This document shows, piece after piece, positions 1-42,710 of a stretch of 64,000 bases of DNA. The translations under genes and the position numbers were made by a program. The stretch comes from Takakia lepidozioides (lineage: Eukaryota > Plantae > Bryophyta), in assembly GCA_030704615.1 (NCBI GenBank), contig CM060731.1, forward strand, positions 81,158,001 to 81,222,000. Direction: 5' to 3'. Each line of letters begins with the position of its first letter. The stretch's first letter is position 1. The notes beneath the pieces were generated by a model that saw only the letters and a list, made by a program, of their open reading frames with translations, was not told the DNA's origin and searched no databases.

Positions 1-367
1 CACAATCAGTGTCCACCTCCTGTGCTATGTCATCTACAAAGATTCTGGCCCCAACACCACGTGTTCTACGAAGGCCATCGCAAGGTGGACTCTGAGTGCC
101 ATGAACGGACATGCTTGCTGCGAGTGCCTCCGCATAGACAGGTAGCACACAAGACCGAGGAGGACTGAAAACAAGTCCAAATAGGTGTGATAGCCCAGGA
201 GGGCAAGTGGAAGCACGCGGACTCCTACACATGTCCACAAAATCCCATTTTTAACACAATGATGCAATGCACAAGTCCAACGAAGAGGATGTCTCCCATG
301 TGCACTTTGCCTCAAGAACAGCGATTCTTGATATTGAAACAACAATGCAAGCATGCACAGGTTCAAC

Positions 368-4103: not shown

Positions 4104-4264
4104 CTGCAAGGTTGTTCACTCAAATTCTTATAAGAGAGGAATGAAACGTCGACTGATGCATGAAAAAGTGGGATCAAACAGGTAAGTGTTCTTTGAGCTG
4201 CCAGGTAAGTGTTCATTGATCCTCACGGACCTGCCCTATGTTCCCGATTTTCACAGGGAAAGAA

Positions 4265-6597
4265 CATTCAAAAGTACTGCTCAAACAGTGTGCGTTGCCG
4301 CACACTGTTTGAGCTGGCAGTAAAGGATTCATTTCATCCTCAGATATCTGCCCATGAGGGCCGAAGGTTGCGCCCTTCAATATTGATATGTTCTGCCTAA
4401 ACAGTGTGCGGTTCCGCAGATTGTTTGAGCTGACAGTGAAGGGTTCAATTTATCCTCAGAAATGTGCCCCTGAAGACCAAATTTTGCACCCTAAAACATT
4501 GAAATGTTCAGCTCAAACAGTGTGCGTTGCCGCACACTGTTTGGGCTGACAGTGAAGGGTTCATTTCATCCTCACAAAGGTGCCCCTGAAGTTCAAATTT
4601 TGCACCCAGAAACATTGAAATGTTCAGCTCAAACAGTGTGCGTTGCCGCACACAGTTTGGGCTGACAGTGAAGGGTTCATTTCATCCTCACATAGGTGCC
4701 CCTGAAGTTCAAATTTTGCACCCAGAAACATTGAAATGTTCAGCTCAAACAGTGTGCGTTGCCGCACACTATTTGGGCTGACAGTGAAGGGTTCATTTCA
4801 TCCTCACATAGGTGCCCCTGAAGTCCAAATTTTGCACCCTGAAACATTAAAATGTTCGGCTCAAACAGTGTGCGTTGCCGCACACTGTTTGGGCTGACAG
4901 TGAAGGGTTCATTTCATCCTCACATAGGTGCCCCTGAAGTCCAAATTTTGCACCCTGAAACATTGAAATGTTCGGCTCAAACAGTGTGCGTTGCCGCACA
5001 CTGTTTGGGCTGACAGTGAAGGGTTCATTTCATCCTCAGATAGGTGCCCCTGAAGTCCAAATTTTGCACCAAGAAACATTGAAATGTTCAGCTCAAACAG
5101 TGTGCGTTGCCGCACACTATCTGAGCTGGTAGTGAAGGGTTCATTTCACCCTCAGATAACAGACAGCAAGACCAAATTTTGTACCCTAAAACATTGAAAA
5201 AATTTGCTCAAACAGTGTGCGTTGCCGCACACTGTTTGAGCTGGCAGTGAAGGGTTCATTTCAACCTCAGATAACAGACAGCAAGACCAAATTTTACAGC
5301 CTAAAACATTGAAATGTTCAGCTCAAACAGTGTGCGTTGCCGCACACTGTTTGGGCTGACAGTGAAGGGTTCATTTCATCCTAAGATAGGTGCCCATGAA
5401 GTCCAAATTTTGCACCCTGAAACATTGAAATGTTCAGCTCAAACAGTGTGCGTTGCCGCACACTGTTTGGGCTGACAGTGAAGGGTTCATTTCATCCTAA
5501 GATAGGTGGTGAAGTCCAAATTTTGCACCCTGAAACATTGAAATGTTCAGCTCAAACAGTGTGCGTTGCCGCACACTGTCTGAGCAAGCAGTGAAGGGTT
5601 CATTTCACCCTCAGATAACAGACAGCAAGACCAAATTTTGCACCCTAAAACATTGAAAAGATCTGCTCAAACAGTGTGCGTTGCCGCACACTGTTTGAGC
5701 TGGTTGTGAAGGGTTCATTTCAACCTCAGATAACAGACAGCAAGACCAAATTTTGCACCCTAAAACATTGAAATGTTCAGCTCAAACAGTGTGCGTTGCC
5801 GCACACTGTTTGGGCTGACAGTGAAGGGTTCATTTCATCCTAAGATAGGTGCCCCTGAAGTCCAAATTTTGCACCCTGAAACATTGAAATGTTCAGCTCA
5901 AACAGTGTGCGTTGCCGCACACTGTCTGAGCTGGCAGTGAAGGGTTCATTTCACCCTCATATAACAGACAGCAAGACCGAATTTTGCACCCTAAAACATT
6001 GAAAAGATCTGCTCAAACAGTGTGCGTTGCCGCACACTGTTTGAGCTGGTTGTGAAGGGTTCATTTCAACCTCAGATAACAGACAGCAAGACCAAATTTT
6101 GCACCCTAAAACATTGAAATGTTCAGCTCAAACAGTGTGCGTTGCCGCACACTGTTTGAGCTGGTTGTGAAGGGTTCATTTCAACCTCAGATAACAGACA
6201 GCAAGACCAAATTTTGCACCCTAAAACATTGAAATGTTCAGCTCAAACAGTGTGCGTTGCCGCACACTGTTTGGGCTGACAGTGAAGGGTTCATTTCATC
6301 CTCAGATAGGTGCCCCTGAAGTCCAAATTTTGCACCAAGAAACATTGAAATGTTCAGCTCAAACAGTGTGCGTTGCCGCACACTGTCTAAGCTGGCAGTG
6401 AAGGGTTCATTTCACCCTCAGATAACAGACAGCAAGACCAAATTTTGCACCCTAAAACATTAAAATGTTCAGCTCAAACAGTGTGCGTTGCCGCACACTG
6501 TTTGAGCTGGCAGTGAAGGGTTCATTTCAACCTCAGATAACAGACAGCAAGACCAAATTTTGCACCCTAAAACATTGAAATGTTCAGCTCAAACAGT
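4265..6597. repeat. Tandem array of ~20 units of 115-116 bp, each with a 16-18 bp inverted repeat
   Basis: (CA)GCTCAAACAGTGTGCG-TTGC-CGCACACTGTTTG(A/G)GC(TG) recurs every 115-116 bp (e.g. AAACAG at 4515, 4631, 4747). There are two unit variants (..ATAGGTGCCCCTGAAG.. and ..ATAACAGACAGCAAG..). Confidence 0.97.
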
Positions 6598-9533
6598 AGT
6601 GGACTGGCTGGGCTTCTGCAGGGCATGGACAAGAAACATGACGGACATCCTTGGTGCAGGACAACAACGTCGAACATCCATAACGACATTGGCTTGAAAT
6701 TTCGGAGGTCGGTTTGCGTTGGGCATTGCAAGTGCCTGAATATTTCTTGCCCTCGGCTGAGAAACAGCGCTCAGCCAAACGAAAGTGAGTGGGAAGGTGT
6801 GCCCCTGAATCCTTTCACCCCAGGGCTTGCACCTCCCAAGACCAATACTTTTGTGTGCAGGTTCTGCAAACTTTCCCCGTCCTGTGTTTCTGTTTGCCAC
6901 GCTCGTATGTATCAGGTGGCACATCGATGCAAGACAATGACTCGTGCCTGCATTCATATGGGTGCACACGAGCATCCTGTGTCCAAAGGGAGTTGCAGGG
7001 ATAGCGTGGACATCGCTAGAAATCTACTGAAGCAAGAGTTCCACAATGCCCCTTGTGCAACACCTTCTGCTATAGCGCTTGCAGCTAGCAAGGCATTCTT
7101 GGAAAAACACATATTGGGTGAAGGGGATGCGACACAGCCAATGCTGGATGCAGATTCCCTTGAGGCAGTCATGGACCATTTCTCCGTGTTGAGCTCTCCC
7201 AATATTCGAAACCAGGTGAATGCACTCAGAATGGGCAGAGGCACTGCTGGATTCATGGACAACATTATGGACCTCAAACGGAGGAGTCGCTATGAATTCA
7301 TTCAAAACAGTATGTTCCCTGGCCAGGGCTCGTCCAAAGTGTATTTGTTCAAGATGTCCGCTGTGGGCCAAGGCAGTGGTGTGAGCATTGTCCGCCGAAT
7401 GCAACCTGGAGGAGATTTGGCTAAATGTTGGTTAATGTTTGATCACTGCAAACGGGTGAAGGGTTGGACAACCATGGCGTGCCATGTGTATGATCCAGCG
7501 TACCAGCGTGTGCTCTCCATAGCAATTTGTGATATGCAGTCGGAGGACACTGAATCCCAGATGCTCATGTGGAATTCCCTCCTGGCCGTCATGCAGCGCA
7601 ATGGAATACAGAACACAAATTTTGCGGGCTTCATGGCTGATAGTGCACAGGCAAATTTCAATGCAGTGCGGCGCGTGTTTGGTTCGGGGGATCCTAAGGT
7701 CCCAATGGAAAATAGGGAGCGCACATGCCTCTTCCATTGGAGTCAATCTCTGGCACGTCATACAAAGCGCTGCATTCGCCCTGACCTTCAGTTGGAGCAT
7801 AGAAGGCTCTGTCTGAAGTACAAGAATGCCACCTCAATGGGAGAAGCTGAGAGCACTTACCAGGCAATCCGGGCTTGGTGGTTCTCCTCTAGTGCTGCTA
7901 CAGGTATCCACCTGAAGGAGTTGGAGGACTGGTTGGTTTTCTGGCACTTCAGGTACAGACAATGGGGAGCTTTCATGACGACGGTAAGCCTCACAAGTTT
8001 TCCTTAAACACAAATTGCACTTTGCATCGTGCCTGTTCATTTGGGGTTGTTCGATTGTCACTTGCAGAACCTCTACCATTTCTTTTCCTTCCTCACATTT
8101 CCATGCAATGCCTCCTGCAGGACATGTCCTTGGAGGACTTGGCCGACATGCCATCGTGTAATTTGGCAGAGACTGTTCACAACGCCTAGATGCAACAGTC
8201 TACCAAAGCAGGTCGTGACTTGTATGTGGCCACTGCTGATGACATGGTGCGGGCACTTACACAACAAACCAGGTACCGCAATTTTCTGATGGGACGGGGT
8301 GGAGGGAAGGGCCCCGATACGACTTTGTTGATGCTAAGGGCTGCGAGTAGGTCCGGAGACCCGTCAAAGATGGCCAGAGCTCTAAACAGGTGCACTGAAG
8401 GCTCCCCTCTGCAATCCAGGCTCCCCCATTTGGAAGGCGAGGAAAGATTTGGATCATGCAAAAGGAAATTAAACACTCTTCCAGGGTCAGATGGAGATTC
8501 CCATAGGCCAGACAGGGTCAATTTCTCTGTGCCAAAGGTGTCTCCAGTGCAGACTAAGTCCTGTGCCGGCCCCTTCCCAGGTGGGTCCTCCTCCTGTGGA
8601 GCAGGTGCAGAACATGCAAGCATAGCAGCGGAAATCCCATTGGAGGAGGTGGTGGCCATGGTGCAGGAATCTGATTGCATTGATAGTGACTGGCATATAG
8701 AACGCACCCCACCAGGATCTAGAGTGGCTTGCATGGCAATTCGGACCCCCTCATTCAAGAAATGCAAATCAAAAATATGCAAAGGCTCCAGGGGGACTCC
8801 AGCTCCAACATTCACAGGGTTGTTCCGACCTTATCATAGTGGGGAGTCAAAAGAGCACAAGTTTTGGTTCTGCCCAGACGATATGGCACGATGCGTGAAG
8901 GGAACAGTTCGTCCTTCCGTGATAATGAAGCCCCCTCCCCCCGCAATTTGGCCTGTGAAAATTGGGACATCGTTGTCCTCAACCGAGATAAGCATGCTGG
9001 AGGAGGGAGGGTTTTGTCTTGCACGGTCCCGGGTGGTGCCCTTATGCACTGTCGGCACAGATGTGCCACATGCTCCGACAATGCCTCCACCCGGTGCCGA
9101 CTCCCACCCAACAAAAAGAGATGGAAAAACAGTGCGCCGTGTTGCTTCGGGTGCAGATCACGAATGCAAGATGGAATCGGCTAGAATTTTGCAGGCTAGG
9201 GTGACTCGTATCACCGAAGTCCCTTCCCCGGGGTATGGACGGATTTACACAGTGCTGTCAATTGGCTCAGTTCTTCATGCCAAAGAATATCAGGTTACCA
9301 TTGGGAATTTCCCATCGTGCACTTGTCCGGATTTTGTAACGATGCGTGAGGGCGCTCTCGGCATGAGAGGGAAGTGGGTCCCCTGCAAGCATCAATATTA
9401 CATATACCTTGTAATTATGTGTTGCAACGGTAAGAGAGACCAATTCATTCACCAAGCCACACTAGGCTACGGAGAAGTCATCACCCTTCTGCAGCGGGAC
9501 ACCTCGCGTAGAGCTCCGCCAACTTCTCTTTGA
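6598..9533 (+). pseudogene. MULE-type transposase with GCM-like N-terminal zinc domain, DDE core and C-terminal SWIM finger; 5'-truncated, one premature stop
   Basis: GCM-like Cys/His domain (DGHPW..TTTSNI..FRRSVCVGHCKC..C..CRFC..C..H.G.HEHP). Core motifs WLMFDHCKR, FMADSAQANFNAVRRVF, CLFHW and NLAETVH. Intron 7984-8120 (GT..AG, phase 0). In-frame TAG at 8187-8189. SWIM motif YQVTI..PSCTCPDF..PCKH. Confidence 0.85.
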
Positions 9534-9941: not shown

Positions 9942-12900
9942 TTGTATCAAGAAACTGGCGCCTTACGAAAAGGGAGTCAGTTATTGTTCGTGGATGGGAT
10001 AATATCCGGAACTAATGTGTCGTTGTTGGTGGACACAGGAGCGTCGCACTCCTTCATGACACCGGCAACGGCACAAAAGCTGGGACTCCCGACAAGTGAC
10101 GTTGGGGCCTCTATTGAGGTGCGTTCTGCCAAAGGAGAACCACAGTTGGCGACAAGGTTGGCGATTGATGTTCCTCTTCAACTGGGGAGTTGGGAGGGAC
10201 GTGAGAACTTCACCATCTGCGAGATCGATGGAGTGGATCTCATTTTGGGGATGACCTTTTTGAGCAAATCCGGAGCGGTCATAGATGGCCGCAAGAGAGT
10301 AGTCACGCTGCCATGTGGGAATGGTGGCGAGGTATTACGAGTGTCTGAAACGCCCAAATCTGTGGGAGGGCGAATAAACCTTCTATCAGCAAATGAGTGG
10401 GCCGTGGAGGAGGCGCACGAGCCCCAGTTTTTGCTTTACATTAGAGAAGTGAAAGGAGAAGGCGATGGGGAACCGAGCCCAGATTGGATCAAGGGGATTT
10501 TGGAGAAATACCAGGATGTGATGCCGGAGGATTTACCAAGCGGCTTGCCACCGCGAAGAGGAGTTGACCACAAGATTGAGGTGATACCGGGATCGGAACC
10601 GCCTGCCAAGGCGCCCTACCGGTTGAGCCACAGAGAGTTGGTCGAGCTGAAGACTCAGCTCAAGGATCTAATGTCAAAGGGGTACATCCGGCCGAGTAAG
10701 TCACCTTACGGAGCCCCGGTGCTATTCGCAGACAAGAAGGATGGGGCGCTGCGGATGTGTGTCGATTACAGGGCTCTGAATAAGGTGACTATCAAAAACC
10801 GGTACCCTTTGCCAAGGATCGACGACCTCTTCGATCGGTTGGCAGGAGCGAAGTATTTCAGCCGGATCGACTTGCGCTCCGGCTATCACCAAATTCGGGT
10901 GGCGGAAGGAGATGAGGAGAAAACCGCGTGCAGGATAAGGTATGGTTCATATGAGTTCTTGGTGATGCCTTTTGGGCTCACCAATGCACCAGCGACATTT
11001 AGCACGCTGATGAACAGCCTTTTCCAGGAGTGGTTGGATGACTTTGTGATCGTGTACATCGACGACATCTTGGTGTACTCGAAAACAAAGGAGGAGCACC
11101 TGGAGCACCTCAAAAGGGTGTTCCAAAAATTGCGGGAAGGGAAGCTGTATGCCAAAGCTTCAAAGTGCGAATTCGGGGTCACGAAAGTGGAGTTCTTGGG
11201 GCATGTGATTACACAAGATGGGATCAAAATGGATGACAGAAAGGTGAGGGCGATCTTGGACTGGGAGCCTCCGACTTCGGTCCCAGGAGTGCGATCCTTC
11301 CTAGGACTCGCCTCCTATTACCGGAAGTATGTGAGAAATTTCGCCAAGATTGCGGGGCCGCTGTCAGACCTTCTGTGTAAATCTAAAGTCTGGGCATGGA
11401 ACACCTTTTGTGGCCAAGCTTTTGCTGAATTGAAGCAGCGGATGGCGGAAGCTCCAGTCTTGAAAATCCCGGAGTTCGATCGTCCATTTGAGATTCATAT
11501 AGATGCGTCGGACTTTGCGATTGGGGGTGTACTTATGCAAGATGGACGTCCAGTGGCTTACGAAAGTAAGAAACTGAATGAAGTGGAGCGACGGTGGCCG
11601 ACGCACGAAAAAGAGATGAAGGCGGTGGTGCATTGCCTTGAGCTCTGTTGGTTCCAACCCAGTGAAGGTGTTCACGGACAATATCACGGTGAAGTATTTT
11701 GCCACGCAGCCCAAGTTGTCCCCAAAACAACTTACGTGGCAAGATACTTTGGCAGTGTTCGACGTGGATATCCAGTACAAACCGGGACGGGACAATGTGG
11801 TGGCCGATGCTTTAAGTAGAAAGCAGCAGCTCTTGTTGGTGTACAAGGGCGAGACGGCACTCCAAAGGAAGATCCGGAAGGCTTGCCGGAAGGATGAGCT
11901 GGCGAAGTCCGTGATGCAGGACTTGAGGATGGGGGTTAAATCACAGTTCCACTTGCAAAATGGACTGCTCCGGTATAAGCAAAAGCGTCTCTACGTGCCG
12001 AAGGGAGGGATCAGGGATAGCCTCTTGAGAGAATGCCATGATAGCCCGCTTGCGGGCCACGGCGGAGCCAAGCGCACTACGGCACTCTTGAAGAAAGAGT
12101 ATTTCTGGCCCAAACTGAGGGAGGAGGCAGAGGAGTATGTCAAGACATGCACCACATGCCAACAAAACCGGAGCGAGTACAAAAAGCAAGCGGGGCTGTT
12201 ACAACCCTTGCCGATTCCAGAGGGGACTTGGGAAAGCGTCTCGATGGATTTCATGACTGCTATGCCGCTGTCAAAAGGATTCGATGCAATCATGGTGGTG
12301 GTGGATAGGTTCAGTAAAATGGGCCATTTCATCCCCACCAAGGAGACGGCAACGGCGCAGGAGACATGGCGATTTTACTTCGCCCACGTCTTAAAGCATC
12401 ATGGAGTCCCGAAGGATATTGTCTCGGATCGTGATCCAAAGTTTACGAGTAAATTTTGGAGGACACTTTGGAAGAAGATGGGGACGAGGCTGAAGATGAG
12501 CACCGCCTTCCGACCTACGACGGACGGCCAAACGGAAAGAGTGAATTCCGTAGTGAAGCAATTCTTGCGGAATTACGTGTCGGCAGACCAATCAGACTGG
12601 ATGGAACACTTAGACGCGGCAGAGTTCTGTTATAATAACACAGAACACTCCGCAACAGGAGTTTCCCCTTTCGTATTGGTCTATGGAAAAGCACCTCTGG
12701 TGCCGACAAGTTGGGCCGCCCAGGACGTTGAGGAACCGGCAGTAGCGGCGGTACTGGAAGAACGCGAGCGTTTGTTGAAGCTCGCAAAGTACAACATTGC
12801 CAAAGCTAGGAAACGGTATGAAAGGCAGGCGAATCGGAAGCGGAGGGAAGTGAAGTTTGAGGCAGGCACAGAGGTCTGGTTGAACGTCAAGAATTTCCGA

Positions 12901-13311
12901 CTACCTCCGGAAGTGAGTCCGAAGTTCGTACCTCCGTATGCGGGACCCTTTCGCATTCGGAAGGTTATGAATGAGGATGTGTATGAATTGGAGCTGCCAG
13001 CAAACAGCAAGGTGCACCCAGTATTCCATGTCTCCCTTTTGAAGCCTTACTTCAAAGATGAAGCGCGTCCGAATCGGCATCAAGTGTTGCGTCCGCCACC
13101 TATGCTGTTGGATCATGAAAATGAACCTGAGTACGAGGTGGAGGCAATACTTAAGTCAAGGAGGTTCAAGAACCGAGAAACGGAGTATCTCGTCAAATGG
13201 AAGAGCTATCATCATGTGGAGGCATCTTGGGTGCGTGCCTCAAAAATAGGAAACGCATCCGAGGCGGTTGCAGCTTTCGAAGGGCGACCTCAAAAGCGGA
13301 AGAAGCGTTGA
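9942..13311 (+). pseudogene. Gypsy pol polyprotein (aspartic protease, RT, RNase H, integrase, chromodomain), frameshifted at ~11640
   Basis: [10 protein letters not shown] (PR); [10 protein letters not shown] and VYIDDILV (RT); [12 protein letters not shown] (RH); H..H..C..C zinc finger, SMDF, SDRDPKF and DGQTER (INT); YEVEAIL..YLVKWKSY..ASW (chromodomain). The frame changes between ORFs 9942-11819 and 11638-13311. Confidence 0.95.
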
Positions 13312-13928
13312 TGGGGACATCAACCTTGGAGCGTGGGGGAGGAAATGCATGCTTAGCCCGGTTTAGCTAGCTCAGGAATCTGATTGCAAAAACTTGTATT
13401 GTACAAAAATTTGTTATAAATGAAATGGGTTCCAAATATTGTGCGTCCTATTGTGTTTGGAATGGTGATGCATGGTGTGGTTGGCTAGTGTGTAGAATGC
13501 ATGCTAGCTTACAAAAGTGGGAGAGGTAAATTGGGTAATCGTGTGTTTGCGCAGTGCCGAAATCGGGTGACTCCCATCCAAGGGGCAAGGAAACTTGCGC
13601 CTTCTTTGGGAGTTCACGTGCTAGTGCGCACCTGGCGCGTGCGCGTACTATAACTGCGCTACCGAGGGGGTTGCCTTGTAGTGCGGGCTAACGCGGAAGC
13701 TACGTGCTTCCGTTCACGTACTATAATCGTGTAGCCTCGGGACGAAGTCGTAGTGCGGCTTCGGCGTGTTCCCGTACCTCAGGCCAGCATTCCAAGACGG
13801 ACCCAATTGTAGTGATTGGGGCGCACGGTTGGTTCAAGGTTATCTTCCTAGTCAAAGAGGGTTCCAGGTGAACCCTTGCTCAAGGTGATGCCAAAAGCGG
13901 CATCATGAGCGATCGCAGTATGCTCACA
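9956..13928 (+). mobile_element. Ty3/Gypsy chromovirus (Tcn1-like) LTR retrotransposon, 3' part (PR-RT-RH-INT-chromodomain, PPT, 3' LTR)
   Basis: Domain order is Gypsy-type. A purine-rich tract (GTGGGGGAGGAAA) precedes TG at 13346. LINE RT sequence resumes after ..GCTCACA at 13928. Confidence 0.9.
13346..13928 (+). repeat. Probable 3' LTR of the chromovirus
   Basis: Follows the PPT, has TG...CA ends and abuts resumed LINE RT. The partner LTR is not in the window. Confidence 0.65.
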
Positions 13929-14973
13929 CCAAAAGCTGTGTCACTGTTAACGGACATAAGTCCAACTTCTTTGACATAGACCAAGGTGTAGCTCAAGGAT
14001 GTACTCTCTCCCCTCTGCTCTTCAATGTTTTCATCAATCAACTCCTCGAGGATGTGGAAAGTGAAGGATTTGGGTTAAGGGTGGGTGATACCACCATACC
14101 AGCCCTTATGTTTGCGGATGACTTTGCAGGCATAGGGGAGACTCCAACCAATCTCCATGAGTTGATTGATTGCGCGAAGAGATACTTTGATCTTTGGGGG
14201 CTAGAGGCTAATGTCAGCAAATGTGCAGTGGTAGCATTCAACGACAGAGGAGAATCCTTAAGCTCCCGACGAGATGAATTCAAGGTCAGATGGTGGGGTC
14301 AGCTGCAACATATGCCCAACACCAGATATCCTAAGTTAATCGACTCTATATCTTGGAAACAGGACCGCCCTGTCAAGTCCTGGCAGAAGAGAGTAGAAAA
14401 GATTCTCAAGGACCTGGACCTGGATCCGCAAGTCTTGACCCTGCTGGATAAATCTGACTTAGAGGCTGTAGTGTCAGAACCATGTCTGTTGCCATGAGAT
14501 TGTCTGATGAAAATGAAGTTAGGCAGAGAACTTCCCTGAACTTGTTTCCAGTCAGTGACATAGGGGTGGACATCTTGGATGACCTCAAGGGTCTACCCAC
14601 TCTCGGCACTAGACTGAAATTTAAACTCAGTGCAGGAAGCCTACCTTTGAACAGCAAACAGAAGCAGAGAGGAAAGGGAGAGTGCAATTGTCCGCTGTGT
14701 GGGCAATCTGAAGACAGTATTCATTTTCTGATACACTGTCCGGGGTTCTCTCACCAAAGAGACGCTCTCTTCAATTCTATCAAGGGAATTGTGCCTGTAC
14801 CCCTGTTTACCAACTTTGAAAATCTCGAGGCTGAGCCAAAGGCCCAGGCCCTCCTGAGGCCTAGTTTTTGGGCAAATCACACACAACAGATTGATGCTTG
14901 TGTGAAGGGTTTTCTAGAGGATATCTGGAAAAAGAGCCTCAGGTCTGGTCTTTGGGAGGTAAATATGCTCTGA
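13929..14973 (+). mobile_element. Degenerate non-LTR retrotransposon (LINE): RT C-terminal part and zinc-knuckle C-terminus, with internal deletion
   Basis: KSCVTVNG..GVAQGCTLSPLLFNVFI..LMFADDF..EANVSKC (LINE RT) and CPLCGQSEDSIHFLIHC (C-terminal CCHC). Confidence 0.85.
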
Positions 14974-15556: not shown

Positions 15557-16112
15557 CTTAAGCTCCCGACCAGATTAATTCAAGGTCAAATGGTGGGGTC
15601 AGCTGCAACATATGCCCAACACCAGATATCCTAAGTTAATCGACTCCATATCTTGGAAACAGGACCGCCCTGTCAAACAGGCTAAGTCCTGGCAGAAGAG
15701 AGTAGAAGAGATTCTCAAGGACCTGGACCTGGATCCGCAAGCCTTGACCCTGCTGGATAAATCTGACTTAGAGGCTGTAGTGTCCGAAGCCATGTCTGTT
15801 GCCATGAGATTGTCTGATGAAAATGAAGTTAGGCAGAGAACTTCCTTGAACTTGTTTCCAGTCAGTGACATGGGGGTGGACATCTTGGATGACCTCAAGG
15901 GTCTACCCACTCTCGGCACTAGACTGAAATTTAAACTCAGGGCAGGAAGCCTATCTTTGAACAGCAAACAGAAGCAGAGAGGAAAGGGAGAATGCAATTG
16001 TCCGTTGTGTGGGCAATCTGAAGACAGTATTCATTTTCTGATACACTGTCCGGGGTTCTCTCACCAAAGAGACACTCTCTTCAATTCTATCAAGGGAATT
16101 GTGCCTGTACCC
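15557..16112 (+). repeat. Second near-identical copy of the LINE 3' segment (matches ~14257-14800)
   Basis: Direct repeat beginning TTAAGCTCCCGAC.., with the same translation (MPNTRYPKLIDSISWKQDRPVK..CPLCGQSEDSIHF). Confidence 0.9.
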
Positions 16113-17699
16113 CCTAAACCCATTGCACCAGCCACAAAGCACTCCATGTGGAAAGCACAAAGCACTATGTAAATGGCACTCACTGAATTGCGAACGGTTG
16201 CATTGACTGAGCTGCGGTCGCCGGTGACTTGCTCGCGCCCGCCCCGCGCTCCTTGTTGTGCAGTCACCCACCCCATGAATACACAAACAACCAAAAACAA
16301 AAACAAGAAACAAGAAAGAACAAGAATAGAAGGAGATGGATTGAGAGAGATGATGAAAGAGAGGGAGGCAGAGAGGGAGGCAGAGAGAGAGGGAAGAGGG
16401 GCAGGGAGGGAGAAAGGGAGAGATCGCAGGGAAGAGATCGCAGGGAAGGGGAGTCGCTGCATACCTCTGTTGCGCGCAAGATCGACTGCCCGATTTTTAG
16501 TCGGTGACCGCGATTTACCACCTTGGGGGAGGACGTGCTAAATTTCGGAGGAACCCCTACGTCAGCTTTAACAGCAGCTAGGAGCCTGCTAACTAGCGGG
16601 GGTTGTAACGGGCAAGTGCGGCCGTCACCACGCCGTTAACGGCTGGTACCTAGCTTAGCAAGCCGCTTAGCAGCCAGGTGCGGCCGGGGCTTAGAGTCTC
16701 TATAACGGAGGGCCTCAATCTTACTTTGGTGGGCTCTATAAGCAAGCCGCCCGGGCCCTTTGCGAACGCATTCTAAGTAAGATTGCCTTCACCAATGCCT
16801 TCTAAGATTGCCTTCGCTGATAACCGACCTGCCGCACCCTTGTTAATTACTAATTGTCCCCACAACCAAGTTGTAGCCAAGTGATAATGGACACATACCA
16901 CCTCAGAAGAGGTTGTGGGTTCAACCCACGTCCACCTTCTTGCCGGAAGGTAGTACCCGTGGGGGGTGAAGCGACACCATAACTTAGACCTCCTTGTCGA
17001 GGCGTCATAAGTAAATCAATGAATAATATTTGTTGGCCATAGGAGGTCCTGACCGTTCAAAGACGTCGTATCCGTCCTCTCATGAATTAAGTATTTTTGG
17101 GACACTCTATCCATCCAGGGGGAGAGGCCTCTGGCGGGCCCACTTACCTCTAAGTTACACCGGCTAAGATAGAGGTAACTTAGTGGGCTGCTTGTAGATT
17201 AAAACATGAAGAGAGTGAAGTGTGTCTGCAAAGTGGTAGAGTTCGTTCGTATGATAAGGTGGTGTTTTTCCTTGTTTTGTTTTTTGCCTCCTTCTGTTGG
17301 ATCCCTGCTACCTCTTTCCATTTCACTGAATAGTAGGTTTCAGATCTCGCAACTAGCTTTGTTGTTGGAAGAATCCTACCCCTTAAGCCTGACACGTAAA
17401 TATATACCATAACTTTTTACAAAATATTTAATACAGGACAAATCAAGTTAATCAATTGAAAAGAGCGAGAAAACAATAACCTCGCGGAGGGCCATAAGGC
17501 AATATAATCGTGGGAAACCTCCCATAACGCCTCATTGGAGTCATGGTTCACCAAGAGAACAACGGCAACGAACCAAACTTCAAGAAAACACCATGGACAT
17601 AAATCTAGGACCAAGAACCCACCACAAGTACTGAAGTTGTACAGGACCAACAACACTAGCCAGAGCACGACAAATGCACATCAAGAGAGACCAAAATAA

Positions 17700-33244: not shown

Positions 33245-33775
33245 GGAGCGACACTGTGGAGTGTTTTTTGTGTGGGGGAGTTACTATTTTAATTTTCTTA
33301 TGGTTGGATCCCATCCACACCTGCATGTTTGACTGTGCGCCATGTTAGTTTTTTGTGGGCGCTTGTTTTCATAGGAGGTTGGTCCGGATTTGATCACCGG
33401 TCAATCCTAGAGCGTGCTGTTGGTGGTGAGGCTAGGGTGATGACCAGTCAGACCATCGTTCACTAGAAGAGAAACCGGCTTTTTCCACGGCTCTTTTCAC
33501 ACTTTTTGCCGTGGAATCCGCCCCAGTCCACACCTGCCGTGGGTGTAAGAAACGACTAGTGCTTTCGGACACCCCGTGGACGGCCTGGCTCTCGGGTGGC
33601 CTTGTGGAAAAGTCCACGGGTGGTTGAATCCACGGGTGGCTTTTTTCATGGTGTTCATGGCTTTTTCCACGGGCGACGTGTGCTTTGGCGAACACCGCAA
33701 CGTGGATCCTAGATGTACAAAGGTGTGGACTTGTCCACACCTACGGGAAAACCATGCGACAGCCTGTCACCAGGG

Positions 33776-34114
33776 TGTCAAGTTAAATAAGCACAGTGTG
33801 AAAACAACTAGAATAAAGCTAGTTGGATTTAGATCAAGTGTTAAATCAAGTGTCAAGTTTAGTTTGACACCTGAACCGCCTTATCTTCACGAGAGCGGCA
33901 GTCGCGCAGCTCATCTCTCTCGAGTTGAGCCTGCGCGACCGAGCTCCTGCATCGTTTAGGACTGAGTGTGCTTATGATGGGAGTATAGGTTGTTGTGGGG
34001 TGGAGTCCCCATAGCTTGGGGTGCCCCTGGCTCGACTTCTGTTTTAACGAATGATAGCGATGGATTTCATGTTGTTTCTGGTATGAACAGTGTGTCTCTT
34101 AGCTTGTTCTACCA
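33776..34114 (+). repeat. Repeat A1 (5' terminal repeat, 339 bp)
   Basis: Matches 41332-41687 apart from ~9 substitutions and a 17-bp indel. Confidence 0.95.
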
Positions 34115-34129
34115 CTCGAGAGAGATGAG
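34114..34129 (+). promoter_or_regulatory. Putative self-priming primer-binding site
   Basis: ACTCGAGAGAGATGAG immediately after A1 is the exact reverse complement of CTCATCTCTCTCGAGT (33910-33925) inside A1. There is no TGG-type tRNA PBS. Confidence 0.8.
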
Positions 34130-35589
34130 TTTGCATCTGTGAGTGCAAGATGTGAGCTTAATTAGTTTTTAGCACTTGTGGGTTTTGTGTGAAGATGAGA
34201 GAGAAACACGAGGGTGCAATGGCAAGTTAGGCTTCTGTGTGTTGAAAGCGGTAACACGAAAGTGCATGGGTATTCTCCCTTTATAACGGTCACTGGCTGA
34301 GCGGCAGATTGAGAGCCGAGCATGGTGAAACGATCAGCATTATTGTTGTCTCGCAAGGCTGGGATGCAAGCCTTCATTGTCTTGGTGGTTAGAAGCGGAG
34401 GTGCAGCTGGTTACGCGAGTAGGTGGACCGTGGTCTTCGACTTAAGCTGCAGAGATAAAAATACCATGCTATAGGTAATTCCTGAGTAGACTGATGGTTT
34501 CAGACCTGCACATAGTGAGCAGCCAAGGTGTTGGACTGGTTGATGGGCTCATGTCTACAAGTCATCGTGCCAATGTTATATCGGTACTGATGACAAACGA
34601 TTTGGTGAAGTTGTTGATGGCATATATCATGGTGTGCAATCAGTAAAGGCTGAGTTGAGAAGTTGGCTGGCTATCGTTGGTTTTCTTGGTCAGCGAGCAG
34701 GGACAGGCTGGCATGAAGGCAGATTGTGCCGTCGTTGGCTTTCATGTGGAATAGTTACAGCAAAACCGGTGGGAATATTTGTAGTCAAATAAGATCAACA
34801 AGCAAGTGAGGCTTGGTGATTATGCTTGAGGAATTCGATCTTGGACTTGGACGGGTCTGTAATAATTTTTATAAAAAAACGAGCATGGATGAACTGGCCA
34901 AGTGGCGATGGTGTTGTCCTCGATTAGCTGTGGATTGCAATAGGACAAGGAGAGCAAGAACAGGGTGATGAAGGGGTGCAGACAACGACACCTAGTTCCA
35001 TCAAGGCTTGGTTAAGGTCTCCAAGCCTCTTTGCATCCATCAACTGTGTGGCTAGAGCCCATAAAGCTTGACTATAGCTGATGTTTTGTTAGAAGATATG
35101 GCTCGTAGCCTGCAGAGAACACAAATAACATTGTCATCCACCACTGGGACTGCATGCTAGAAAGCCATGGAGGCGATGGCACCTGCCGTGTAGTTGCCAG
35201 TGCAGAAGAGGTTGAGGGAGAAGCCATGAAGCAGCGTCAGCCACGGTAGTTTGATCATCATCCTTCAACAAGTCGCTACATTCAGTTTCAGGCACTGCAG
35301 CAACTTGGCATCTCCCCCCCCCGGCTCTTGATGCCTACGTATGCATCCAGTAAGCGTCCAAATCTCAGCCTTCGCGAGTTACCCTGCGCGCACACTGAGC
35401 AGCATCCCGTTTCTCGTGTGCAGGCAAGCAGTCTGTGCCAACTTGTGCAACAGTTCGCCCAGTCTGGGTTAACTAGGACAGTTTGCAGTTGAGATGTGGA
35501 TGGAAAAAGGCCCAAGGGAGGGAGGGCCTCAAGGAGGGCCAAAAGGCAAGGCTGTATGTAGGTAGGAGAGATTAGCCAGCTGCCTCTTT

Positions 35590-35860
35590 TACAACATTCG
35601 GACACTCAAAGAAAGGAGTGACTGATACATGCTCATGCCGACAGGCAAGTGAGTTGGCTGAATGGATATCTGTGTCGCCTGAAACGCAAAGTGCAGCTAC
35701 ATCGTCCTTACAAGTGACAACGGCTTGAGCTAGCACACCTCGCACATCCACACACGCCAGCTTGTTTATGCCATGCACCTTGTCATCGCAACCTACACAC
35801 AAAAATGCTGCATCTGCCCTGCAATACATAGTAATGCTTGACACATGACAAGACGTGTCT
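35590..35860 (-). pseudogene. Captured CONSTANS-like (COL) double B-box fragment inside the retrotransposon
   Basis: [31 protein letters not shown], then RVWMCEVC in a shifted frame, then [41 protein letters not shown]. Confidence 0.85.
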
Positions 35861-36311
35861 GTGGTAGCCAGGCTTCCTGAACGAGGGAGAAGGACGCCGG
35901 TGCACGTTTGAGGACAAACAATCCCTGCACAACAACTCCCGAAGTTGAAGATTTCTCCAAAGAACGAGCAACAATGGCCATAGTTACCAAAACGGCTGGT
36001 ACAGTTGTAACGGCCATGCTTGGAAGATCGCATCTCGGATTTAACGAAACAGGTTCGGGATGAACTGACTCCCTTGTCATTCCTTCCAGGATTCTTGCTG
36101 TGAGTGAGATCTTCACATTCTATAAGGGAGGCCGGACGGAGTGGATCGTAGCCCAAGATATTTTCGTGCTGGGAGCTCAAAAATGTTATTTATAGTGGAG
36201 AACTTAGAATTCGCAGGGAACCAGGGAACAGGGAACCAAGACGGATTATTGGAAATAGATTTTTCATTTGAATGACATATATTATGTTTAAAGAGCCTAT
36301 TTGGCCATAAC

Positions 36312-37850
36312 TTGTCATACAAAGGGTTGCTGGAGGGCAATGCCCATGCAGAGGATGTGCCACCTCCAGCAGAGCAGGATGACATGCATGGTATGGCGGA
36401 GTTGCCTGCCATGGTTGCTCACACTCCATTGTGGGGTACGAGCAAGGATTTGCAGCAGGCTGCTGATGGACGGGTGCAACAAGCTTGGGTAGAAGCTTTC
36501 GTACCGTCAGGAGAGGAGGAGAGTGCGGTGATTGCACCAGGACCACCCCAGTTGTCGCCATTGGACACCACACCTCTTGTATGGCAGTGCCCGGATGAAG
36601 GCATATGCCTTCTGGACTTGTTTGGCGGGATCAGCACTGGATTGGCTGCAGTGCTGCAGGCAGGTGTACGAGTTCGACGTTACCTGTATGTAGAGAGGGA
36701 TGAGACTGCACGACGCGTCTCACTGCGCCATGTTGCTCCGTTGGTACAGCAGTACCCTATTTTGTTGCCAGTGTCTACAGTTCGTGGATACCAACAAGCC
36801 TTGCCAGCAGACATTTCGTTGTTGGGGGCGCAGGATTTGGAGCAGGTTGGCTCCATTGATCTGGTAGTGGCAGGTTGGCCCTGCCAAGGGCATTCATCAG
36901 CCGGGCATGGCAATGGATTGCGAGACTCGAGGACGGGTCTGTTTTGAGAGATGATGCGGGTTTTGCGCCACTTGCAGCTTCATCAAGCTGTATCTCCAGC
37001 ATACATCTTGGAGAATGTGCCACTGATGGGTGATTCTCGGGCCAGGGTGATGGCCAGTGTGCATCAAGTCCGGTCGTGGCTTGGGTCAGCAGTGTTGCTG
37101 GATGCAGCTGCAGTGGGGTCACGGGCTCATCGTCCACGGCTTTGGTGGACTAACTTGATGCCACCCGCACTGCTCAAGCGTGCATTTGATGGGGTGCAGC
37201 GGCCAGCATACCTCACCAAGGATGGCATTTTGGACACAGGGAGGCAGTCTCAATGTGTGAGACACGATGACCGTTCGCCTTTGGCAGTGGTCAACAGGAT
37301 GGGTCAACCACGAGCAGCATTACCTACACTGCTCAGCTTCCCAGGATCCCATGCTTTTCGGGATGGTGGACCAAGCCTCTTGTGGGATAGCCAGTTGCAA
37401 CAGTTAGTGGAGCCTAATGCCGACGAGCGAGAGCGGGCTATGGGATTTTCCACTGGGACCACGGCGGTGCCTTCTCTTTCTGAGGCATCACGTCGTCAGG
37501 TGTTGGGGCAAGCAATGGATCTCAATTGCTTGACCTGGATTATCAGCTTGGCTATGGCTGAGCAACGTAGAGTGCAAAGTGCACTTCCCTTGACGGTCTC
37601 TCTGCCTACCGAGACGGTACAGGCAGCGAGTGGGGACGAGCCGGTGAGGACCACGGGGTGTAGACATCCATGGCACATGTGGGAGGTGCTCGAGGTTCAG
37701 AGGGAGTTGGCAGCCAAGGCAGCTGTGATGGATGAGGTTGGGGATTCTTCTCGGGATGAGGAGGTTCTCAATGATGAGATGATGGGGCAGGATGAGGCCT
37801 TGTCATTGACTGAACAGGAAGGGAGTACTGCTCAAGAGGTTGCAGCATAG
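36312..37850 (+). pseudogene. DNA (cytosine-5)-methyltransferase (DNMT3-like) domain in the Gypsy pol region, one premature stop
   Basis: Motif I LLDLFGGISTG, II YVERDE, IV DLVVAGWPCQG (catalytic PC), VI ILENVP, VIII AHRPRLWWTN, IX/X ERERAMGF..RRQVLGQAMD. In-frame TGA at 36945-36947. Confidence 0.92.
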
Positions 37851-37859
37851 CAACCATAG

Positions 37860-39493
37860 GACGCGTCCTCTACCTCTAAGCCCACTGGACTTAAGGTTGC
37901 AGTTACGGAGGACAATTGGGAGCCTGACATTGGACCCATTGTCACCGGAGGAGAGAAACGACGTATACGGCGGTTCCTGAGGGCTTACAGGAATTGCTTT
38001 GCCTTCAGTTTGAAGGACTTGGGAGCACTGAAGGGTCAAGAGATCCGTATTGAGTTGGCCACTGACACGCCAATCTTTCGGAGACCCTATAGATACAGTG
38101 ACATGGAGAGGTCTTTGATTCAGATGAGGACTCAAGATCTCTGGGAGACAGGTTTGGTGGAGCTCTCTGGTGGAGAGTATGCTTCAGCCACAGTGATGCC
38201 AGCCAAGAAGGATGTCTATGGCAATTGGACGGAGAGACGTATGTGCGGTGATTACTGGCCTGTAAATCGTCAGACCAAGTCCGATAGGTATGCCATGCCG
38301 ACACCAGAGGAGATCTTTGATGCCATTGGGCATTCCAAGGTCTTTAGCACGTTGGATTTACGATCCGGATATCACCAGTTGCCGATCAAGGAGGCGGATA
38401 AGCAAAAGACGGCATTCTGGGGGATCAATGAGCACGGGAAGGATTGCCTATACCAGTGGCGGTTCTTACCATTTGGGCTTAAAAATGCTCCCACTGAGTT
38501 TCAAAGAATCATGGACAGGATTCTAGCAGGGGTGGAGTTTGCTCGGTGATACATAGATGAATCATCATCTTTAGTGCTACGGTGGAGGAGCATGAGAGAC
38601 ACCTTCAGGGGGTATTTGAGCGCTTGAGGACGCATGGATTGAAGTTACATCCGGGCAAGTGCAAGTTTTTCCACAACCAGATTGAGTATCTGGGTCACAT
38701 GATATATCCTAGAGGATTGGGGGTACAGCAGACTAAGGTAGAGTCCATTGCACAGGTTCCACGCCCCACAGATGTGAACCGAGTTCGAGCTTTCATGGGG
38801 TTAGCAAACTATTACAGACAGTTTGTTAAGGGATTTAGTGCCATTGCAAATGCTCTAACCAAGCTGACCAAGGTGGACCAGGAGTGGCAGTTGGAAGATG
38901 AGCAAGAACAAGCTTTTCAAGAGCTCAAGGCAAGGTTGACCTCGGCGCCCATCTTGAGACGACCTATCAGGGGGCGTCCTTTTCAGCTGCATACAGATTG
39001 GAGCATGCTGGGGCTTGGAGCGGTGCTCACACAGGTGGATGATGAGGGAAGAGAGTTTGTAGTGGCTTATGCTAGCCGCTCGAACAATGCTGCAGAGTCT
39101 AAGTTTAGCTCATATGAGGGAGAATGCTTAGCTGCAGTGTGGGCCATGGCACACTTCAGGTGCTATCTATACGGCAATCTCTTCAGCCTTGTCACGGATC
39201 ACCAACCACTCAAGTGGTTGATGGAGTTAGACAAGCTTACAGGGAAGCTTGCATGGTGGGCACTCATCCTTGAAGACTATGACTTTCAGGTGGTGCATCG
39301 ACCGGGTTTGGTCAATCGCAATGCAGATGGGTTGAGTCGCAATCCATGCACGAGCCAGCAGGATGATACTGGAGCTCGGTGGCATGGTGAGACGGACGAG
39401 GAGATGGTGCCCGGATGGCATGCATCTGCATTTCTGTGTATCTTGGCAGCGGAAGGTGAGGTTGGACCTGCAACAGGGATGACTGTAGATTAA
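37860..39493 (+). pseudogene. Gypsy reverse transcriptase and RNase H (stops and frameshifts)
   Basis: [27 protein letters not shown], degenerate YIDD, LHTDWSMLGLGAVL, YEGECLAAVW, TDHQPL, NADGLSR. Confidence 0.95.
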
Positions 39494-40984
39494 GTGTCTG
39501 AGGACCCTGAGGCCAGCAATGAGCAAGGTGGCGCCAAAGATATACATGAGGATTCAGTTGTGTTGGACTACCTCCGCACTGGAGACACTGCAGCCACTGT
39601 GACTGCCAAGGAGAGGGATCGGATCCTACAACGAGCCAAGAGGTTCAAGTGGGAGGGGACACACCTGCTCCGAATGTGGGAGGATGGTCGAGTGAGGATT
39701 GTGTCTCACCCAACACAGCGGGCACGGTTAGTGCGGCATGCCCATGAGGAGTTGGGGCATTTTGGGGTGCGACGCACTCATAGTCTACTGCAGGGGCAGT
39801 ATTGGTGGCGTGGTATGCACACAGAGGTGCAACAATTTGTGGTTAGGTGCATGGTGTGTGACAGGGTGCGTGCTTCATTCAACGCCCCTACTCCACAATT
39901 GCACCCTCTTCCGATCATGGGATTGGGCTACAGGTGGAGTCTTGACTTCGCAGGGCCATTGCCACTGACCATGCGTCACAACAAGTATGTGTTGGTGATG
40001 GTGGAGCACTTCTCCAAGTGGATTGAGTTGGTTCCATTGCCTGATAAGGCTAGTGAGGGAGCTGCGGATGCATTCTTGGATTGTGTGCTTAGCCGATTCG
40101 GTGCTCCAGCTGAGGTATTCACGGACCAATGGAGAGAGTTCTTGGAGGAGTTTCAGGCTTTGTGTGACAAGGCCTTGATAGACCACCGCACCACTTCTAG
40201 GGATCATCCTGAGGCTGATGGCTTGGCAGAGAGAGTTGTTCAGACAGTAAAGAGGGGTTTGCGCAAGTATGGCTTGCAAAATGGACACCTAGGAGATTGG
40301 GACCTTCAGTTACCCTGGTTAGCCATGGGCTACAGGTTCAGCAAGCAAGCATCACTTGCCTCCTTCTCACCATATTTTCTTCTCTTTGGCCGAGAGCCGG
40401 ATTTGTCTGCATCCATTCGCAGAGAAGCTGCTGCAGTTCTTAACCTTGACGATCCGGACGTGTGGGCACGTGCATGTGAGCAGCGTGCGGAGTTGTTCAA
40501 GAAAGTCATGCCCATGGCTTTCGAAAACCTTGTCATCGCACAACACCGTGATACGTTGAGGTATGCTACCATACGTGGTGGGGGCTATCGTCCTGGGGTT
40601 CGGAGATTCAACCCTGGTGACTATGTTTACCTGCAGCAAACTGCTCTTACGACCTTGGATGTGACTGCAGGACGTGTTATTTTGAGGGTTCGAGAGGTCT
40701 TGCCCTCAGGCGTCTTGGTCTTGGAGGGTCGGGATGGCATAACTTGGAAGGACCATGTGCGTAATTGTGCGCCATGTCACCTTCCGAATGTCGATGGCAG
40801 GATTGACCCAAACCTGGCAGTGGTATCTGCAGGTTTGAGATGCATGTTGTGTGGGTCTGCTAGAGGGGCAGCCACCATGCTGGTGTGTGATCGATGCTCT
40901 AGAGGTTGGCATATGGGCTGCTTGACTCCACCTCTTGAGATGGTTCCGGATGGGGATTGGTTATGTCCACATTGCATTGGATAG
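39494..40984 (+). CDS. Integrase with C-terminal PHD finger
   Basis: HEELGHFG..CMVC zinc finger; SLDFAGP, TDQ and ADGLAER core; C4HC3 PHD CMLC..LVCDRCSRGWHMGCLTPPL..VPDGDWLCPHC. Confidence 0.93.
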   Translation: MSEDPEASNEQGGAKDIHEDSVVLDYLRTGDTAATVTAKERDRILQRAKRFKWEGTHLLRMWEDGRVRIVSHPTQRARLVRHAHEELGHFGVRRTHSLLQGQYWWRGMHTEVQQFVVRCMVCDRVRASFNAPTPQLHPLPIMGLGYRWSLDFAGPLPLTMRHNKYVLVMVEHFSKWIELVPLPDKASEGAADAFLDCVLSRFGAPAEVFTDQWREFLEEFQALCDKALIDHRTTSRDHPEADGLAERVVQTVKRGLRKYGLQNGHLGDWDLQLPWLAMGYRFSKQASLASFSPYFLLFGREPDLSASIRREAAAVLNLDDPDVWARACEQRAELFKKVMPMAFENLVIAQHRDTLRYATIRGGGYRPGVRRFNPGDYVYLQQTALTTLDVTAGRVILRVREVLPSGVLVLEGRDGITWKDHVRNCAPCHLPNVDGRIDPNLAVVSAGLRCMLCGSARGAATMLVCDRCSRGWHMGCLTPPLEMVPDGDWLCPHCIG

Positions 40985-41243
40985 TGGGAGTGGATAGAAC
41001 CATGGAGGGCTAACAAGAAACGCAAGGCCAAGCTACTAGGGGACCTTGAACACACGAGGTCTTGACTCAAGTTCATAGATTGCAAGACGGCGACTAACGA
41101 TGGGGCTACTCTTGTACCCGGCCTCTTGGTCTATAGAGTTTGAGTACAACAGGGACAGTGATAGAGGACTTAGTACGGCTGTGGCTATTACATCTTGTAA
41201 CTATCTGGAGGTAAAGGGACCTATCCACCAGCTAGGGGGGCGA

Positions 41244-41773
41244 TTGGGGCAGACTACTTTATTGTGCATATATGTGTGGTGTGGTTTGGACAGCGATGTA
41301 GTTATGTAGCGATACGTATGCGCACGACAGCTGTCAAGTTAAATAAGCACAGTGTGAAAACAACTAGAATAAAGCTAGTTATTTGTATTTAACACTTGGA
41401 TTTAGGTCAAGTGTTAAATCAGGAGTCAAGTTTAGTTTGACACCTAAACCGCCTTATCTTCACGAGAGCGGCAGTCGCGCAGCTCATCTCTCTCGAGTTG
41501 AGCTTGCGCGACCGAGCTCCTGCATCGTTTAGGACTGAGTGTGCTTATGATGGGAGTATAGGTTGTTGTGGGGTGGAGTCCCCATAGCTTGGGGTGCCCC
41601 TGGCTCGACTTCTGTTTTAACGAGTGATAGCGATGGATTTCATGTTGTTTCTGGTGTGAACAGTGTCTCTCTTAGCTTGTTCTATCATTGTGGCAGAATA
41701 CTTTATTGTGCATATATGTGTGGTGTGGTTTGGACAGCGATGTAGTTATGTAGCGATACGTATGCGCACGACA
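41244..41773 (+). repeat. 3' terminal repeat block B1-gc-A2-B2
   Basis: B1 (41244-41329) and B2 (41688-41773) are 86 bp with 2 mismatches. A2 lies between them. The B1/A2 junction is the palindrome GACAGCTGTC (41326-41335). Confidence 0.95.
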
Positions 41774-42710
41774 AGGGTTTGACGACATCTGGGCAACGGT
41801 GTGTGCAACACGTGTATTTTTGTGAGGATGACACGTGTATGGACACGAAGAGGCGTTGTGCACGTATGTGGAGCGGACATCTGGCGTGGCATGTGGGTGT
41901 GAAAAAAGCCATTCGGTGTGAGACCATCCACTGGCTGTTTTCACAGCTTCAGCAAGTTTGGAGGCCACGTGTTCTTTGGCAAACACCGCCACGTGGATCC
42001 TAAACGTACAAAGGGTGTGGACTTGTCCACACCTACAGAAAAATGATGCGACACCCTGTCACCTGGGCTTGACGACATGTGGGCAACGATATGGGCAACA
42101 CGTATATTTTGGAGAGGACAGCACGTGGCGTAATCTGCATGGAGTGGGTGTAGTATTTTACTGCCTATACTGTAGGTCATTCCACATAGCTGTGGAGCAT
42201 ACCATAATGGGTGTGAAATATCTACTGCTGATGTTGTAGGTCATTCCACAAAAATGTGGAGGATGCCACAGGCAAGCTGCGGTTGATTTCACATATTTGT
42301 GACGTCATGGTGTGCACAATTAATACACAGGCATCATGATCATATCACAAATCGTGATACTGTCCACACTGTCAGTTTCACAGTCCATGTGAAATATGAC
42401 TCATATACATAAACACAATTCCAAAGCACCACGACAACAACCTGCTCATGACATGTACAATTGACTAAGCATGGCCAGAACAACAGAAAGAATGACCAGA
42501 TGCAAGGGTGCTTCAAAGTTGGGTACGCCCTTCATTGCCCAAATACAGTTTAGTCTGAACATGCAAGTATTGCAGAGTCTGCACTACTGATCACAACCCC
42601 ACAATGTACCCAAATCCTACATTGATGCGCAAAATCACGAAGAAAAGGTGAAATCGATATGAAGTGGCGTTCAGTCAAAATTGCCTTCAAACTGAGGATC
42701 CCCCACAACC

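Follow-up and report, generated by a model that had tools for sequence, protein, structure and literature searches.

A Ty3/Gypsy lineage with split direct repeats and a candidate internal palindromic attachment site

A 64-kb stretch of contig CM060731.1 of Takakia lepidozioides (assembly GCA_030704615.1, positions 81,158,001 to 81,222,000; "the window" denotes this whole stretch, numbered from its first letter) contains at 33776–41773 a retroelement with Ty3/Gypsy-type proteins that reads A1-internal-polypurine tract (PPT)-B1-GC-A2-B2, with A and B as split direct repeats, rather than being framed by two complete long terminal repeats (LTRs). Judged by the related sequences assembled here, this layout is neither a one-off nor an artefact and represents an ancient, widespread variant of Ty3/Gypsy. 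Inserted copies end at a conserved internal palindrome, which points to an attachment (att) site located within the predicted LTR. Our preferred reading, to which we assign a probability of roughly 0.6, is that the complementary DNA (cDNA) would be end-joined into a circle, which integrase would then open at CA^GC-TG inside the LTR.

Layout of the window copy and its relatives

The structure of the window copy was derived from the sequence, a repeat search and alignments; all its features lie on the forward strand except the strandless palindrome. AGGG stands on either side as a target-site duplication (TSD; 33772–33775 and 41774–41777). Repeat A1 (33776–34114), comprising the left att end (TGTCA...), the promoter, the equivalent of R-U5 and a terminal CA, differs from A2 (41332–41687) by 9 mismatches in 339 columns and a 17-bp indel, while B1 (41244–41329), which ends in ...CGACA and corresponds to the 5' part of U3 in the predicted cDNA, differs by 2 mismatches in 85 columns from B2 (41688–41773), whose own ...CGACA forms the right att end. 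The PPT (41234–41243) consists of a G-run plus CGA and is followed directly by the start of B at about 41244. The primer-binding site (PBS; 34114–34129) abuts the terminal CA of A1, and the same letters occur as a loose contig end in run X3. When joined over a single AGGG, the host flanks are collinear with a paralog of the interrupted host repeat that is itself intact (about 41963–42140) and serves as an empty-site reference outside the element. The preliminary description of this locus had proposed the layout, the 4-bp TSD, the DDE integrase and the empty site, and the sequence, the alignments and the Pfam matches bear all four out. It had also placed the PPT and the PBS against B1 and A1; this placement holds, with the start of B now set after the G-run plus CGA and with a tRNA-type PBS rejected, the PBS being instead complementary to A of the same element.

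Contigs carrying the window's species label add to this picture. The joint 33771→41774 is present in contigs of three of four runs (X1, X2 and X5, from two samples) and need not represent an empty allele, because host-repeat paralogs can also give it. The element is left exactly at 41773 by 32 contigs in X1 and 19 in X3, and the consensus agreement of the flanks beyond this point is low (0.46 and 0.41, respectively), as expected from many independent insertion flanks. Within this contig-only material, none of the mapped contigs spans the whole window element.

Searches for relatives returned 87 loci, of which 73 are distinct once L007, a spurious match of 31 residues, and 13 loci judged to assemble an already counted insertion anew are taken out. 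Their integrases are 42–79% identical to that of the window copy; the metagenomic part of the set holds 80 of the 439 stretches confirmed and stems from 30 of 64 parts, and the counts given here are among the matches listed. At the 3' side, 17 of the 73 read PPT-B-xx-A-B-host (xx being the two spacer bases) and 14 read PPT-B-host; 13 more have the palindrome without a callable end, one is internally deleted and 28 are uncalled. Because the same layout recurs in 17 independent loci, an assembly artefact is ruled out as its source. Both ends are visible in seven loci and in the window copy: five of these eight elements read A...B-xx-A-B, three read A...B, and neither a conventional LTR element nor one with B-GC ahead of A1 is among them. 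Conventional LTRs in other copies, the observation that the preliminary description had named as speaking against its own reading, are thus seen in 0/8. A 4-bp TSD flanks all eight (five perfect, three with one mismatch), and the TSD sequences are unrelated to the GC spacer. In a quick integrase tree, used only for this purpose, the full and A...B forms are interleaved.

The border between B1 and A2 is the palindrome GACAGCTGTC (41326–41335, dividing as GACA-GC-TGTC), the only one in the 64-kb window; its GC spacer (41330–41331) is absent from both ends of the element. Exact matches number 23 in 867 kb of loci, duplicates included, against about 0.4 expected. In the related loci B ends in ACA or TCA, A starts with TGT or a transition variant, and two bases, GC or its transition variants, make up the B|A spacer in every case. 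The palindrome is kept in algal-type loci at 42–48% integrase identity, where the rest of A and B can no longer be aligned. This conservation, together with the 4-bp TSDs, supports the earlier proposal of the palindrome as the att site.

Several sequences were set aside in this survey. L001, L003, L006 and L010, which show B-GC-A without B2, were not counted as circles, and the 127-bp terminal overlap of L001 is typical of a collapsed assembly loop. L001–L006 are eukaryotic Gypsy-DNMT/PHD elements found in five contigs of four prokaryotic metagenome-assembled genomes (MAGs) of GTDB, plus one more of the same MAG, and their presence there is contamination of those bins. Pattern and DNA searches of the four contaminated MAGs gave no new insertions, the further palindrome matches lying in two cases inside the reverse transcriptase (RT) of another Gypsy element and otherwise in bacterial DNA; scans of viral contigs gave no locus of the element.

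Predicted cDNA ends and a proposed route to integration

Counted from the final A of A1, 16 bases pair perfectly, as a reverse complement, with A positions 135–150 (33910–33925 within A1), the stretch that we take as the predicted self-primer and transcript 5' end. Self-primer pairing reaches a score of at least 11 in eight of ten distinct A-PBS junctions; the paired letters differ among four families, and in relatives the self-primer lies some 25–35 nucleotides (nt) below a TATA-like box. Self-priming puts the 5' end of the RNA inside A1, so that the front of A1 and all of B2 could not be copied from their own positions. The established retroviral reverse-transcription scheme yields a U3-starting LTR at both cDNA ends. 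Given that the PPT abuts B1, standard reverse transcription would therefore give B-GC-A as the LTR at both ends, the unit that had been proposed at the outset. In all five full copies the A1/A2 and B1/B2 divergences are alike (2.7/2.4, 7.7/6.2, 10.4/10.5, 9.6/7.4 and 12.5/12.2%), and a copy-specific duplication in L041 is common to A1 and A2; the equal ages of the A and B pairs are in line with B-GC-A at both cDNA ends, renewed in each cycle.

The A2|B2 junction (41686–41693 in the window copy), the putative joint of the two reverse-transcribed DNA ends, was scored by eye in 11 sister copies of one family. Three junctions are precise, five carry 1–4 added bases (A, T, AT, AT and ATTC, where the PBS also begins with ATTC) and three are microhomology deletions, giving indels in 8/11 copies at A2|B2 versus 0/11 at the B|A palindrome (P=0.001); the background inside B is 11 indel events in 1688 bp. 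A2|B2 thus looks newly made in each cycle by the joining of cDNA ends, as had been suspected, and a variable junction combined with equally aged A and B pairs is what such joining would predict. B2 is only 8 bp long in L069. Integrase needs a minimum end length, which a B2 of 7–8 bp, as a free end, probably does not reach; the very short B2 of L069 and of several Chlamydomonas families therefore favours joining before cutting. In known systems, cDNA ends of Tf1 still carry primer copies and untemplated bases, and circles of HIV (human immunodeficiency virus) still carry PBS and PPT remnants (PMC11042837). As a separate observation, the end of A and the start of B (41680–41697 and 34107–34115) are loose inverted repeats of each other in the window family; they are possibly decayed ancestral att sites and are not kept in other families.

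In the cycle that we propose, transcription would start at the self-primer inside A1 and terminate in A2, ordinary reverse transcription would yield a linear B-GC-A...B-GC-A molecule, and host end-joining of its ragged ends would produce a 2-LTR circle with the A2|B2 junction. At the upstream palindrome integrase would cut each strand after CA, and the 2-nt offset of the cuts would leave two 3'-processed ends with 5'-GC overhangs, to be lost on repair; strand transfer would then generate the 4-bp TSD and the A...B-GC-A-B form, from which an A1-to-A2 transcript could restart the cycle. Circles with one LTR, or cuts at both palindromes, would give the dead-end A...B form. More speculatively, the upstream palindrome might be preferred since it would be the first to become double-stranded after the second strand transfer. 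The individual steps have counterparts elsewhere: the integrase of prototype foamy virus (PFV) cleaves each strand of its palindromic LTR-LTR junction behind CA, with 2-nt 5' overhangs resembling those of 3'-processed ends (PMC1180852), HIV-1 integrase cuts its own junction palindrome (PMC1905944), 2-LTR circles of HIV can undergo opening and integration (PMC4372172), and in flies circles are a major fate of LTR cDNA (bioRxiv 2022.09.25.509424). The reading given in the preliminary description is supported as to the LTR unit, the att site and the A2|B2 junction. Absent from it were the second common product, A...B flanked by a 4-bp TSD, the self-priming nature of the PBS, the Dnmt3-like domain, the PHD domain and the fact that gag and protease are gone from this copy.

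Several observations weigh against the end-joined circle. The circle, the transcript ends and the integrase cut are all deduced from sequence contigs. A symmetric 2-LTR circle predicts the mirror form A-B-GC-A...B as often as A...B-GC-A-B, and the counts are 0 versus 5 (one-sided P=0.03), so that joining may come before or after integrase binding or cutting; early loading of integrase on the first double-stranded palindrome, or a one-way RT jump, would account for the missing form. The A...B copies can equally come from B1 × B2 recombination after insertion, and branch lengths do not separate A...B from full copies (0.090 versus 0.088, P=0.73), a weak test. In a second family, three of four copies (L019, L021 and L075) have CA-A-TTGTGG as a common junction, and it could have been passed down and not made afresh, a recurrent untemplated A fitting as well; the 3' end of A is moreover of low complexity, and slippage may inflate the junction indel count. 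Among the uncalled loci, 11 with more than 600 bp past the integrase show no convincing palindrome or B repeat, and no self-primer was found in L003 or L006. An origin of the internal att site in self-priming is rejected: Chlamydomonas families primed by tRNA have the same B-GC signature, and self-priming is therefore not the cause of the layout.

The closest rival keeps the internal att site and dispenses with a prior covalent circle: linear cDNA would be cut at the upstream palindrome and the leftover ends joined later, even after strand transfer, or RT would jump. In the latter version RT would pass from the end of A onto the start of B, giving B-A...B-A-B-A, to be trimmed at palindromes 1 and 3 for the full form or at 1 and 2 for A...B. 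A one-directional jump of this kind would explain both observed forms and the lack of A-B-A...B (0/8), and the added A and AT bases and the microhomologies at A2|B2 also fit template jumping. It does, however, require that RT jumps on just one strand and that the middle palindrome is passed over, whereas cutting first requires a fragment of 8–13 bp to act as an integrase-bound end in L069, and neither variant has a precedent in those parts of the literature that were consulted. We regard this family of explanations as a serious though clearly less probable competitor, at somewhat better than one chance in four.

A cycle like that of PAT, TOC1 and Ngaro, with a full A1-to-B2 transcript, B1|A2 splinting the ends into a circle, A2|B2 being inherited and a DDE integrase performing the insertion, is suggested by the identical A...BAB layout (PMC5890265) and by the junction common to three of four copies of one family. 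Against it stand the self-primer and TATA-like box, which set the 5' end some 135–180 nt inside A, the abutment of the PPT on B1, the variation of the junction in 8/11 sister copies and the full-length, simultaneous homogenization of A1/A2 and B1/B2, and we consider it improbable. That the window copy arose from an ordinary LTR element by a single aberrant integration, a rearrangement after insertion or a misassembly might be argued from its degenerate state and from the want of a contig across it; the related loci refute this. Several families have independent loci that share the layout and carry 4-bp TSDs, many contigs bearing the window's species label pass out of the element precisely where B ends, and the layout has been published for Klebsormidium (PMC5890265). 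This last explanation is left with next to no probability. The end-joined circle opened at the internal palindrome remains the reading that we favour.

Coding capacity and the surrounding window

Pfam identifies in the window element DNA_methylase, RVT_1, RT_RNaseH, Integrase_H2C2, rve and PHD. In order, these form a stop-interrupted, Dnmt3-like C5 cytosine methyltransferase domain (36546–37571), RT and RNase H (37911–39280, with a frameshift near 38550–38561), a DDE integrase with an H2C2 zinc finger and an rve core (39713–40633) and a C-terminal PHD finger (40841–40975). The pol region is broken by stops and this one frameshift, and comparison with the intact relative L001, which has a gag-like region, protease, DNMT, RT, RNase H, integrase and PHD, shows that gag and protease have been lost. 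No tyrosine recombinase domain was found in the two open reading frames of L001 or the six window frames scanned, and domain scans gave no chromodomain match in either element, a PHD finger being present instead. The DNMT domain of L001 has DNMT3A/B/C as its best PDB matches, and the predicted integrase fold is best matched by the PFV and Ty3 intasomes, with PFV on top. In common with Ty3/Gypsy elements, the lineage has the Pol order protease-RT-RNase H-integrase with a retroviral-type DDE integrase (in L001; the window copy is without gag and protease), a PBS after the 5' repeat, a PPT before the 3' repeat, TG...CA ends and a TSD of 4–5 bp; two complete, identical terminal LTRs are present in none of the eight elements with both ends visible. 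On this evidence the lineage is Ty3/Gypsy by its proteins and not by canonical terminal structure. Named homologues are from Calypogeia (81%), Riccia (76%), Sphagnum, Marchantia, Klebsormidium (51–55%) and Haematococcus (46%); the closest of them, in the first four genera, point to a probable bryophyte host.

In place of gag and protease, neither of which was detected there, the window copy holds a 2.2-kb 5' internal stretch (34130–36325) that has no match in the related loci. The summed contig depth over this stretch in run X1 is about 300–3000, far below the roughly 1,000,000 over pol; contig depth was not used as a copy number. Contig variants of the stretch exist (joint 35304→35582), and it therefore forms a small sub-family of its own. 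From its sequence, the window element is a dead, non-autonomous copy of a rare sub-lineage within an abundant family.

Two features of the proteins stand apart. In all 102 integrases with a readable motif (155 examined; window core 40121–40228) the spacing from the second D to E is 35. The usual D,D(35)E spacing is 36 by the same count, and 36 is also the value in the window's chromovirus, which served as the control for catalytic spacing; this clade-wide shortening of the integrase core by one residue might relate to palindrome cleavage. The DNMT domain directly precedes the integrase in the algal-type loci L042, L043, L054, L057, L064, L069, L071, L073, L074 and L079 and precedes RT in the bryophyte-type loci L001, L019 and L041, and the two positions suggest domain shuffling or two captures.

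Elsewhere in the window, the chromovirus just mentioned is a conventional chromovirus-type Gypsy pol at 10596–13350 (RT 38% and integrase 27% identical to L001), with a chromodomain-like C-terminus by eye and a PPT followed directly by TG; it served as the tree outgroup. A tandem array of about 20 units of ~115 bp, 85–90% alike, occupies 4190–6600, and a 550-bp direct repeat (14257–14803 and 15557–16113, 96%) lies beside an RT fragment that by eye resembles a long interspersed nuclear element.

Significance and comparison with known systems

In a broader form, for which we see about even odds, the elements described here would make up a green-lineage-wide Ty3/Gypsy clade that uses the end-joined circle as an obligatory integration substrate, with the preformed CA-GC-TG junction in U3 as its only att site; every copy would be a circular permutation, 1-LTR circles would give the repeat-less A...B form, and the clade may include Gypsy-7a_cRei. 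If this is true and Gypsy-7a_cRei, a highly active laboratory element, belongs, the idea of the circle as precursor becomes directly testable. Textbook LTR elements and retroviruses integrate linear cDNA ends, circles being mainly by-products. A whole lineage inserting by way of an internal palindrome would offer a natural example in which circles (or internally cut molecules) are integrated as the ordinary route, and its integrase, in opening a short palindrome by cuts 2 nt apart, would possess a restriction-like activity. Such a lineage also illustrates how the DIRS/PAT layout can be reached convergently by a DDE element. In practical terms such elements defeat LTR finders and LTR-based dating, because of the unequal repeats and because B is followed by no repeat in 14 of the 31 callable related loci, and according to the contig data the family is very abundant in the window's host.

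The preliminary description knew of no such layout for a Gypsy element, and this part has to be withdrawn: KnitGypsy-Dnmt3 of Klebsormidium nitens is reported by de Mendoza et al. (2018) to have DIRS-like repeats with Gypsy domains (PMC5890265, Fig. 4c legend), DIRS layout being drawn there as A-coding-B-A-B (Fig. 1e legend). Like the window lineage it combines a Dnmt3-like DNMT inside a Gypsy Pol with A...B-A-B repeats; the portions of that article that we consulted give no TSD, palindrome, primer, A...B form or mechanism for it. Two K. nitens integrases are 55% and 51% identical to that of the window copy and are not tied to the published element; in a quick tree that had a single long outgroup they branch outside the loci, as the sister of them all. 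Among 35 longer-protein DNMT matches none is from K. nitens. A streptophyte Gypsy-DNMT3 is mentioned in bioRxiv 10.64898/2026.05.21.726589, the relevant passages of which hold no repeat details. Literature searches, with subscription journals, theses and Repbase notes outside their scope, returned nothing on an internal att site, palindrome, A...B form, circle integration or mechanism for these elements. The split layout is thus already in print as a passing remark, and an explanation of it was not found in the parts of the literature consulted.

In Chlamydomonas, Craig et al. describe the left LTR of the active, PHD-bearing Gypsy-7a_cRei as being without the final 8 bp of its right-hand counterpart, the passages concerned not discussing a mechanism (PMC9940879). 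In the accompanying library (supplement of PMC9940879; entries assigned by file order, ends read by eye), of 19 Gypsy entry ends, 14 close with PPT-B-CA-GC, followed by an LTR that begins with TG, the other five being conventional (three), mirrored (one) and unclear (one); in families 2, 3, 6, 7, 8 and 9 this B end is found again at the 3' terminus of the LTR. These families differ from the window clade in a B of 7–8 bp and, in families 2, 7, 8, 9 and 11, a tRNA-type PBS, and the likeness seen is one of signature. With Tf1, Sushi and Tcn1 the window lineage appears to share a PBS complementary to its own 5' RNA, positioned right after the terminal CA (PMC6317226, PMC11042837), whereas those elements are bounded on either side by conventional full LTRs and possess a chromodomain, and the window lineage has PHD and DNMT domains; Chlamyvir is described as algae-specific (PMC6317226).

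The A...BAB split direct repeats themselves are those of PAT, TOC1 and Ngaro. These elements insert from a circular intermediate at the B|A junction. Unlike them, the window lineage has a DDE integrase without a tyrosine recombinase, 4-bp TSDs of unrelated sequence, and both a PPT and a PBS. With PFV integrase acting on 2-LTR junctions it would share, by analogy, the palindromic CA-NN-TG site, the staggered cut after CA and the loss of 2 nt on integration (PMC1180852). The PFV palindrome, however, forms only at the circle junction, as a side route, whereas that of the window lineage lies inside the LTR and appears to be its normal att site.

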